64,000 nt of DNA from positions 1 to 64,000 of IMG/VR virus record IMGVR_UViG_3300022562_000520; one strand, 5' to 3'. Below, piece by piece: positions 1,942 through 2,680 of the stretch. The DNA is from a virus. Made by a program: the position numbers and the translations under genes. The notes below the pieces were generated by a model. The model did not search any database and was not told the origin of the DNA. It saw nothing but the letters and a program-made list of their open reading frames with translations. How positions within the stretch are numbered: the first letter of the stretch is position 1; each line of letters begins with the position of its first letter.

Positions 1942-2442
1942 CTATGCTGCTTCTTCTAAAATCGCGTAAATTTGACTAAAATCAGTAGGTTTAAAATCAC
2001 CTTCAAGAATTTTATTTGCGATTTTTCTACCTATTCCATAATTAGAATAAAGTGGTTCTATCTTTGGCAACTCGATAGCTGCAAGTAAATCGATAGTTAC
2101 TACATGATTGAACGGTGCGAGGAACTGTACAAGCGAATCTGCTGCATATTTTGGTATCGATTTTCCATTAACGATTTCCTTCGCTCTGCTAATCTTTGCA
2201 GAAAGACTACAATAGGCATCATATAGGCCAGCATTTATTAAGTGCCCATTTTGTAATTTAGTCTTTCTGGTTATTGGTGTGAATCCACGTTCTGCTGGTT
2301 TGCCACATAGTAAATTAAACATCAAGTGATGTGCGCCCTGTAACCAGCAAGATGTTTCAGGATCGCTAATTCTAGCAGCGTTACTCCATGCGTGACGGAA
2401 TGAAATGTATTGTTCTTTGGTGTTAAAAATTGATTTAGTCAT
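1942..2442 (-). CDS. hypothetical protein, predicted output gene of the amber/RAPP leader
   Basis: 166-aa ORF with AGGAG SD; ends TAG-TAA; no recognisable family. Confidence 0.85.
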   Translation of the reverse strand: MTKSIFNTKEQYISFRHAWSNAARISDPETSCWLQGAHHLMFNLLCGKPAERGFTPITRKTKLQNGHLINAGLYDAYCSLSAKISRAKEIVNGKSIPKYAADSLVQFLAPFNHVVTIDLLAAIELPKIEPLYSNYGIGRKIANKILEGDFKPTDFSQIYAILEEAA

Positions 2443-2450
2443 GATAAATT

Positions 2451-2513
2451 CTCCTATTAAGTGTGTGTTTCGACTATAAAAAATGTTAAATAAGACGAAA
2501 CACGTTAAGGAGG
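2451..2513 (-). promoter_or_regulatory. SD-sequestering hairpin in front of the 166-aa gene
   Basis: 5' arm CTCC-TTAA-C-GTGTTTCG pairs with 3' arm CGAAACAC...TTAA-TA-GGAG, which contains the AGGAG SD. Confidence 0.75.
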
Positions 2514-2579
2514 GGCACGACTACGGTGTACCTACGTGAAAGGGATTTTAAAAATCTAATGTTTAGTTAATTTCATCAT
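2505..2579 (-). CDS. leader peptide with two in-frame amber codons and a C-terminal RAPP arrest-like motif: MMKLTKH*IFKIPFT*VHRSRAPP
   Basis: Manual translation from ATG 2579; TAG at 2558-2556 and 2534-2532; CGT GCC CCT CCT TAA at 2519-2505; no strong SD of its own. Confidence 0.7.
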
Positions 2580-2606
2580 AATTGTATATATCATTTGTTT
2601 TTAAAC

Positions 2607-2680
2607 TGGCGCTCGCGGTGGGAGTCGAACCCACGTGCAAGGATTTAGAGTCCCCCGCTATGCCTCTCAGCTACACGAGC
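2607..2680 (-). tRNA. amber suppressor tRNA (anticodon CTA), CCA encoded; charged amino acid unknown
   Basis: GCTCGTG/CGCGAGC acceptor, G73, D arm GCTG-AGAGGCA-TAGC, anticodon arm GGGGA-CTCTAAA-TCCTT, T arm GTGGG-TTCGACT-CCCAC. Confidence 0.92.

Follow-up and report, generated by a model that had tools for sequence, protein, structure and literature searches.

A short RAPP leader interrupted by amber codons beside a tRNA-CUA gene: a probable read-through-gated translational switch in a giant phage

The DNA analysed here, called the window below, is the 64,000-nucleotide stretch at positions 1-64,000 of IMG/VR record IMGVR_UViG_3300022562_000520. The whole record is 100,293 bp long, its estimated completeness is about 31% (CheckV), and its source is a giant phage. 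On the minus strand, a tRNA gene with the anticodon CUA is followed by a 24-codon open reading frame (ORF) that carries two in-frame TAG codons and ends in Arg-Ala-Pro-Pro (RAPP), the core of known ribosome-arrest peptides. The last codons of this leader can pair with the Shine-Dalgarno (SD) sequence of the next gene, which encodes a protein of 166 amino acids (aa). The features that make up this arrangement are listed in the order of transcription:

2607-2680, minus strand: amber-suppressor-type tRNA, anticodon CUA (ARAGORN; Rfam tRNA model, 58.9 bits)
2584-2593, minus strand: conserved A/T-rich box TGATATATAC; its octamer GATATATA stops 5 nt short of the leader ATG, and the window has no other copy at zero mismatches
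2505-2579, minus strand: leader ORF of 24 codons plus TAA, MMKLTKH-x-IFKIPFT-x-VHRSRAPP, where x is TAG (read from the sequence; homologues in 19 other distinct loci)
2556-2558, minus strand: first in-frame TAG, codon 8, with A at +4
2532-2534, minus strand: second in-frame TAG, codon 16, five codons ahead of the RAPP Arg and within a conserved P-F-T/W-TAG-V context
2508-2519, minus strand: RAPP arrest core, CGT GCC CCT CCT (sequence motif)
2508-2512, minus strand: anti-SD arm CUCCU within the two Pro codons (minimum free energy folds, pairing table and pair counts)
2465-2503, minus strand: inner stem-loop of 8 bp, GUGUUUCG (2503-2496) with CGAAACAC (2472-2465), predicted by the folds to clamp the outer arms together
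2439-2455, minus strand: SD AGGAG (2455-2451) and start region CAUGA (2443-2439) of the 166-aa gene, both paired in the predicted closed state
1942-2442, minus strand: putatively regulated gene of 166 aa, with an all-alpha product according to the structure model; it ends in TAG and then TAA

The tRNA-CUA gene is 74 nt long, has a normal seven-nucleotide anticodon loop (CU-CUA-AA) and encodes its CCA end. An alignment with 10 orthologues gives a canonical cloverleaf. ARAGORN labels the gene "pyrrolysine", a label that it applies to any CUA anticodon, and the cloverleaf looks ordinary. Comparison with E. coli tRNAs returned no match, and comparison with the tRNAs of a relative returned weak similarity only. 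That relative, IMGVR_UViG_3300024983_000001 (257 kb, 78% complete; G003 below), carries the same kind of leader and encodes about 50 tRNAs, a single one with the anticodon CUA. Two other features of G003 were recorded in passing: at 134631-135363 it encodes tRNAs of 77-79 nt with Leu anticodons (UAA, CAA, UAG) and no long variable arm, and at 15875-16226 ARAGORN reports a candidate permuted transfer-messenger RNA.

The leader begins at an ATG (2579) 27 nt after the tRNA, and its stop codon ends at 2505. These elements had been picked out in an earlier examination of the letters alone (the sequence-only reading), and the tRNA-CUA (with ARAGORN and Rfam), the 27-nt gap and the 24-codon frame with TAG at codons 8 and 16 were all recovered from the sequence. 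One and the same frame takes in both TAGs and reaches RAPP without a frameshift, and nothing resembling the +1 bypass of prfB is present. RAPP followed by TAA (2519-2505) places an R-A/G-P-P core at the C-terminus of a small upstream ORF, as is expected of arrest peptides. The leader has no hydrophobic segment, and its 24 residues (10 in some relatives) include no signal or transmembrane segment, so that it is not a substrate for Sec/YidC monitoring.

A core of this type is rare in the phage. A scan of all six frames of the 100,293-bp contig (200,582 codons) found a single R[AGD]PP, the one in the leader. No second leader of the same kind was found in the contig or in G003, where R[AGD]PP with a nearby TAG occurs once. 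Together with the recurrence of the arrangement in 19 further distinct loci, this rarity indicates at the sequence level that the leader is not due to chance.

To compare the arrangement across phages, 25 loci encoding relatives of the 166-aa protein were collected from pattern scans. They reduce to 20 distinct sequences, the window included, and counts of loci below refer to these 20 unless another number is given. The downstream proteins are 22-64% identical to the 166-aa protein of the window. At all 20, a short ORF stands upstream of the gene; it carries one or two in-frame TAGs and then an arrest-type end. This end is R[AGD]PP in 14 loci, RGP-stop in four, an RGPP that continues in one, and NGPP in one lineage. 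The collected loci, designated by L numbers, are distributed as follows:

RAPP: window, L005, L010, L012
RGPP: L004, L006, L007, L013, L015, L016
RDPP: L002, L003, L008, L009, L011
R-G-P-stop, in 10-codon leaders of the form M-T-TAG-x4-R-G-P-TAA: L019-21, L023-27
N-G-P-P: L017, L018, L022

The sequence-only reading had proposed that the upstream regions of homologues, translated with TAG allowed, would carry the in-frame TAG and the RAPP-type end, and that homologous loci without TAG or RAPP would speak against it. No such locus was observed among the 20, all of which combine an in-frame TAG, an R-x-P-P-type end (NGPP in the one lineage) and anti-SD pairing. A search of IMG/VR with the exact leader pattern of the window returned the L002 contig as its sole match.

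The variants of the core found at these loci (RAPP, RGPP, RDPP) are those with arrest or partial arrest in published work. RAPP and RGPP arrest ribosomes behind various N-terminal sequences, EF-P does not relieve the arrest, and both rank with the tetrapeptides that bacterial proteomes avoid most; RDPP and RSPP are partly permissive (PMC12992588).

The position and identity of the interrupting codons are also constrained. Walking back in frame from the motif, the nearest stop codon is TAG at every locus (20/20), and TAG makes up only about 22% of the stop trinucleotides in the window's genome. The nearest TAG lies four to eight codons before the Arg and never closer than four; its distance is exactly five codons in 14 of the 20 loci, though the intervening residues differ. 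In 29 of 30 cases across loci, a purine follows the leader TAG. A purine after UAG is the context that favours amber suppression over termination in classical codon-context work. The motif Arg is encoded by CGT, CGC, CGA or AGA depending on the locus; its retention across codon families points to selection on the amino acid or peptide rather than on the bases.

These patterns bear on the idea that the region is an untranslated RNA element, in which UAGGU, CCUCC and the stems would serve as structure or as a binding site for a protein or a tRNA, such as a tRNA sensor of the T-box kind, and the reading frame would have no role of its own. The region is indeed structured, and it adjoins a tRNA and a GOLLD RNA. 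Such an element is nevertheless very improbable, since conservation is three-nucleotide and frame-keeping, with leader lengths that differ by whole codons; an ATG and an SD stand at the 5' end in most loci; the Arg and Pro codons change synonymously; and no locus has an in-frame TAA or TGA between the leader ATG and the motif. The interval 2430-2606 also gave no Rfam match at an E-value of 1 or below.

The predicted RNA structure ties the end of the leader to the start of the 166-aa gene. The minimum free energy (MFE) fold of 2436-2520 has an energy of -16 kcal/mol (z = -2.8), and three of 200 shuffles were as stable. In this fold, CUCCU (2512-2508) pairs with AGGAG (2455-2451) and UCGUG (2520-2516) pairs with the start codon (2442) and its flanking bases, CAUGA (2443-2439), so that both the ribosome-binding site and the AUG would be sequestered by the Arg-Ala-Pro-Pro codons. 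The pairing of the CCT CCT TAA arm with AGGAG, as put forward in the sequence-only reading, is thereby reproduced. Across the comparison set, the Pro and stop codons (x-P-P plus stop) pair with the SD in the MFE folds of all 20 loci, and the inner stem is present at every locus with a differing sequence.

Compensatory changes provide further evidence for this helix. They include CCUCCGUUG::CAACGGAG and CCUUGA::UCAAGG, as well as GAU::AUC versus GGC::(A)CC beside the AUG. Changes 3' of the Pro codons are matched by changes 5' of the SD (UUGA::UCAA, UUAA::UUAA, GUUG::CAAC, UAUU::AAUA), and the base preceding the AUG varies in step with the second motif codon, GAU occurring with AUCAUG and GGC with ACCAUG. 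A covariation test was run on an unfitted MAFFT alignment of 13 loci for two named helices. In these helices 71.3% of cells were paired, against 31-43% when the 3' partner was slid; six pairs had changed on both sides, and the score of 0.199 was reached by none of 500 shuffles (maximum 0.121). RNAalifold predicted no consensus pairs on the MAFFT alignment because the 3' arm slips register, and per-locus folds and the named structure were used in place of its consensus. The putative stall site overlaps an SD-sequestering helix of a co-directional gene, as the folds of the 20 loci and the covariation both indicate.

The same helix could, however, serve a leader that is gated by read-through without arrest. 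A ribosome that has passed the UAGs would then unwind the helix by translational coupling, and R-x-P-P would be kept mainly as an anti-SD and anti-AUG sequence. Pairing with GGAGG calls for CCUCC regardless of the encoded residues, and CGUG(A/G) pairs with the region of the AUG. The leader frames of L009 and L012 continue through the hairpin and either come within 14 nt of the AUG of the gene or overlap it, and the NGPP lineage does without the Arg. We consider this explanation unlikely on three grounds. AGA keeps the Arg in L012, L013 and L023 even though the CGUG::CAUG pairing is lost. The residue after the Arg is limited to A, G and D, the arrest-competent variants (PMC12992588). Finally, the motif stands in the Pro-Pro frame at all loci, although CCUCCU is readable in three frames.

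The linkage to a suppressor-type tRNA is equally consistent. Related loci have orthologous tRNA-CUA genes on the upstream side of the leader, no more than 1.4 kb away in 22 of the 25 fetched loci; the remaining three are short contigs. The linked tRNA-CUA anticipated by the sequence-only reading was thus present wherever the flank was long enough.

A tRNA-CUA beside in-frame TAGs raises the question of whether the phage uses TAG as an ordinary sense codon, in which case the leader would be a plain RAPP-type leader with another trigger. Recoded phages with suppressor tRNAs are documented (bioRxiv 10.1101/2021.08.26.457843; PMC9523058). Like the window's phage, such phages of genetic code 15 have their own tRNA-CUA and are depleted in TAG as a stop; unlike it, they have in-frame TAG in many, mostly late, genes, while here none was found outside the leader in 100 kb (or in the 257 kb of the relative). 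A greedy gene set under the standard code (code 11) covers 95% of the 100 kb, the replication and virion genes (DNA polymerase and baseplate) included, and its gaps of more than 300 nt are the GOLLD RNA and one other. The called ORFs end in TAA (77), TGA (12) or TAG (5); two of the TAG-ending ORFs are probably spurious, and the gene for ribosomal protein bS21, which ends in TAG, was missed by the set. No credible gene split by TAG was found in the contig. For G003, reading TAG as sense lifts coverage from 0.885 to 0.897, and the TGA control gives the same 0.897.

On the roughly 31% of the genome that is represented, the phage does not show the TAG usage of genetic code 15, and as far as the sequence goes neither the contig nor the 257-kb relative is TAG-recoded. 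The leader TAGs are thus exceptional, and TAG as sense appears confined to the leader. Two TAGs in 24 codons, with essentially none in frame elsewhere, are not ordinary codon usage, and we regard recoding as a highly improbable explanation, even allowing for the share of the genome covered. The TAG-TAA end of the 166-aa gene itself (1939-1944) is not conserved; its homologues end in TAA or TGA, and TAG stops are otherwise rare in the contig. No phage release-factor gene was found in five records, which suggests that the phage depends on release factor 1 (RF1) of the host.

Taken together, the leader is likely to be a translational switch that needs first amber read-through and then a stall at RAPP in order to open, and the comparison of loci supports the switch interpretation offered by the sequence-only reading. 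In the closed state, the messenger RNA 3' of the tRNA-CUA would begin with the leader, the R-A-P-P-stop codons would pair with the SD and AUG, and the 166-aa gene could not initiate. Without suppression, a ribosome translating the leader would meet UAG at codon 8 and again at codon 16, and translation would terminate if RF1 won. A ribosome with UAG-16 in its A site has a P-site codon that starts at 2537, and its footprint, extending to about +15, would end near 2522; the first paired base is 2520. By this geometry, the leading edge of a ribosome waiting or terminating at UAG-16 would stop about two bases short of the helix, which would stay shut, and a few more codons of translocation would begin to open it.

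With suppression, the phage tRNA-CUA, once charged, would read both UAGs and bring the ribosome to R-A-P-P. The stall state is known from cryo-electron microscopy of ApdA and ApdP, from which the stall geometry is taken here (PMC10951233). A ribosome stalled at RAPP would sit on the 5' arm, spanning the whole of that arm and part of the inner stem; the SD and AUG would be freed, and other ribosomes could start on the 166-aa gene. With two UAGs in series, the output would vary approximately with the square of the suppression efficiency.

Alternatively, as the sequence-only reading also allowed, the leader could sense RF1: its input would be declining RF1 activity in the host, or read-through in general, and the adjoining tRNA would be one contributor among others. 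Termination and suppression compete at the same codon, so a drop in RF1 raises read-through, and the lack of a phage release-factor gene in the records searched fits a reliance on host RF1. This alternative seems quite improbable to us. Without a UAG-decoding tRNA, low RF1 would park ribosomes at codon 8, and from there, some 45 nt short of the helix, they could not open it. The tRNA-CUA is linked at every locus with enough flank, and the phage avoids TAG stops, with 5 of 96 called ORFs ending in TAG (two of them probably spurious) plus bS21.

The start of the leader was examined across the loci. The sequence-only reading had cautioned that the leader has no strong SD of its own, which holds for the window; about half of the homologous leaders have a canonical SD at the right spacing (anti-SD duplexes of -5.6 to -10 kcal/mol). 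The box TGATATATAC is common to L002, L003, L008, L009, L011 and L015, and TATAAATA or GATAAATA stands at the same 5-nt spacing from the leader ATG in L004, L005 and L010. All the loci without a leader SD (the window, L004, L005, L008 and L010) have an octamer (GATATATA, TATAAATA or GATAAATA) exactly 5 nt before the ATG. In L002, L003, L011 and L015, the same box lies about 26 nt upstream of the leader and an SD is present as well. TATAAATA, the late-promoter box of T4, also precedes several genes of the contig. The box may plausibly be a T4-late TATAAATA-type promoter that gives a leaderless messenger RNA starting at the leader AUG.

Three other candidates in this region were rejected. With one mismatch allowed, TGATATATAC is no commoner than in shuffled sequence and is not enriched in the window, so it is not a genome-wide promoter motif. 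An N-terminal extension of the leader by MIYT was discarded, the upstream ATG within the box being out of frame in L002 and L011. A start at the GTG within CGTGCC was likewise set aside, as this GTG is missing where the Arg is encoded by CGC or AGA.

Several observations weigh against the proposed switch. Known RAPP arrest peptides are much longer than the leader, with its 24 residues (10 in relatives), and are released by pulling through Sec/YidC. The window's own leader has no SD (anti-SD duplex of +0.6 kcal/mol), and its leaderless start is something that we only infer. The NGPP lineage (L017, L018, L022) is without the critical Arg, and the leader frames of L009 and L012 run on through the hairpin, so that a stall is not strictly needed there. 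The z-scores of the hairpin are modest at several loci (-1.1 to -2). The main residual doubts concern arrest by R-x-P-P in so short a peptide, as against simple coupling, and the initiation of the window's leader.

A comparison with known systems places the leader closest to the RAPP/RGPP arrest peptides (ApdA, ApdP, ApcA, SecM with RAGP, CruR and the Streptomyces lividans upstream ORFs; PMC7897499, PMC10987492, PMC10951233, PMC12992588). It shares with them a small upstream ORF, R-A/G-P-P near the stop codon, a co-directional gene, and a stall site that overlaps a helix hiding the downstream ribosome-binding site. The known peptides have at least 100 aa, carry signal or transmembrane segments, are released through Sec/YidC, and take secretion capacity or a cofactor as input. 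Here, in contrast, the peptides have 10-43 residues and no targeting signal, the input would be read-through of one or two UAGs, the host is a phage, and the target is an uncharacterised all-alpha protein. The published survey of RAPP/RGPP upstream ORFs drew on predicted proteomes (PMC12992588); leaders interrupted by TAG would be invisible to such a survey and the class systematically missed.

Other regulatory systems share single elements with the leader. The gene for release factor 2, prfB, also uses an early in-frame stop codon (UGA) to sense termination against alternative decoding. There, escape is by a +1 frameshift and the gene's own product is regulated, whereas in the leader the frame is kept, a tRNA would suppress the stop, and arrest would open the SD of a separate gene. 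The trpL, hisL and pheL attenuators and the bldA tRNA-Leu(UUA) of Streptomyces likewise make expression hang on the supply of one tRNA read at specific codons, but these are sense-codon tRNAs acting on transcription termination (attenuators) or directly on the coding sequence (bldA), with no stop codon combined with an arrest motif. The nearest functional parallel is engineered: with TAG placed in the tna or trp leader peptides for control by unnatural amino acids, an orthogonal tRNA-CUA must pass UAG to switch genes on (PMC6412442). Unlike the leader, these switches are synthetic designs that act on Rho-dependent transcription termination.

Searches of the literature on arrest peptides, suppressor tRNAs, recoding and phage leaders yielded only engineered analogues and no natural leader that couples stop-codon suppression to an arrest motif, in agreement with the sequence-only reading, which knew of none. 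As proposed here, the leader would work like a RAPP arrest leader with a different input, stop-codon suppression.

The structure model of the 166-aa protein is a confident eight-helix all-alpha fold (predicted local distance difference test score, pLDDT, of 90.5). Searches of Pfam and NCBIfam assigned it no function, and PHROGs gave one borderline match to a family of unknown function. The fold had no significant neighbour in the ESM Atlas, in Foldseek searches of PDB and BFVD, or with VIA-align wide (best Z of 4.6). The family is large and unannotated, with 1005 representatives at an E-value of 1e-3 or below.

The genes and signals around the leader and the 166-aa gene are the following:

2931-3394, minus strand: GOLLD RNA (Rfam RF02032) with an embedded tRNA at 3257-3328
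2687-2902, minus strand: phage ribosomal protein bS21, a contextual neighbour, ending in TAG (2687-2689) 6 nt before the tRNA-CUA
1904-1932, minus strand: sigma-70 promoter of perfect consensus (TTGACA, 17 nt, TATAAT), between the 166-aa and HNH genes
1259-1846, minus strand: HNH_5-domain protein of 195 aa, the conserved downstream neighbour of the 166-aa family

On the minus strand, the order is GOLLD RNA with its embedded tRNA, bS21, tRNA-CUA, leader and 166-aa gene, followed by the sigma-70 promoter, the HNH_5 protein, peptide deformylase, tRNA-Ser(CGA) and tRNA-Arg(CCU). Elsewhere the window encodes a family-B DNA polymerase, an SbcC/gp46-like nuclease and a gp5-like baseplate hub. Among GenBank phages, no match was found for 8 kb of the window (megablast) or for the 166-aa protein (tblastn).

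In the HNH protein, the HNH_5 domain is central and flanked by conserved N- and C-terminal extensions. Homologues adjoin the 166-aa family in other loci:

L002:4548-5231, HNH protein homologue
L005:2505-3083, HNH protein homologue
L011:2400-3014, HNH protein homologue
L012:2453-3058, HNH protein homologue
L015:3180-3755, HNH protein homologue

The HNH protein is 57-85% identical across loci where the adjoining 166-aa protein is only 29-54% identical. Conservation so much stronger than that of its neighbour argues against a sporadic homing endonuclease, and on these identities the protein looks like a conserved core function. The sigma-70 promoter gives the HNH gene a promoter of its own, so in the window's phage the leader probably does not control this gene. 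Between the 166-aa and HNH genes there is also a TATAAATA box, at 1879.

The GOLLD RNA scores 198 bits against a gathering threshold of 150 for RF02032. It is also found in L002 (2317-2777), L008 (196-654) and L009 (807-1265), with scores of 194-211 bits over the four, window included. The embedded tRNA is Gln-like. In L002, L008 and L009 its anticodon is CUA, which makes it a second amber suppressor there; in the window it has the Leu-type anticodon UAG, is 72 nt long, and has neither a long variable arm nor a CCA end. Given the CUA of these orthologues, complementarity between the loop of the window's embedded tRNA (UUUAGAC) and the suppressor tRNA is peculiar to the window and is not conserved. 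tRNAs inside GOLLD linkers are already known (bioRxiv 10.1101/2024.12.08.627333), and the presence of an amber-suppressor tRNA in the GOLLD RNA of relatives, beside a UAG-gated leader, may be new. L002, the closest viral relative, has a gene for a QueC-like or PP-loop ATPase (L002:3047-3667) between bS21 and the tRNA-CUA; the window is without it.

A further proposal, which we put forward tentatively and hold to be possible rather than probable, is that in these giant phages, which do not recode TAG, the tRNA-CUA and the UAG-gated leader form a dedicated two-part regulatory device. The tRNA would be the trans-activator and the leader a natural sensor of the state of the genetic code, licensing the 166-aa family and the HNH module only once suppression is established in the infected cell. 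The decisive UAG, which stands at least four codons from the helix, would be placed to match the ribosome footprint, and a terminating ribosome would leave the switch shut.

If the switch operates as proposed, it would be the first natural regulatory leader to take stop-codon read-through as its input, and it would join nonsense suppression to nascent-peptide arrest. Its two UAGs, arrest core and SD clamp, contained in less than 140 nt, would be a ready part for synthetic biology with expanded genetic codes. For phage biology, the leader would offer a testable handle on why many large phages without recoding carry suppressor tRNAs, at least one conserved target of such a tRNA being now identifiable. 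It would also point to an unannotated family of about 1000 sequence clusters, together with its HNH partner, as being expressed only under suppression.

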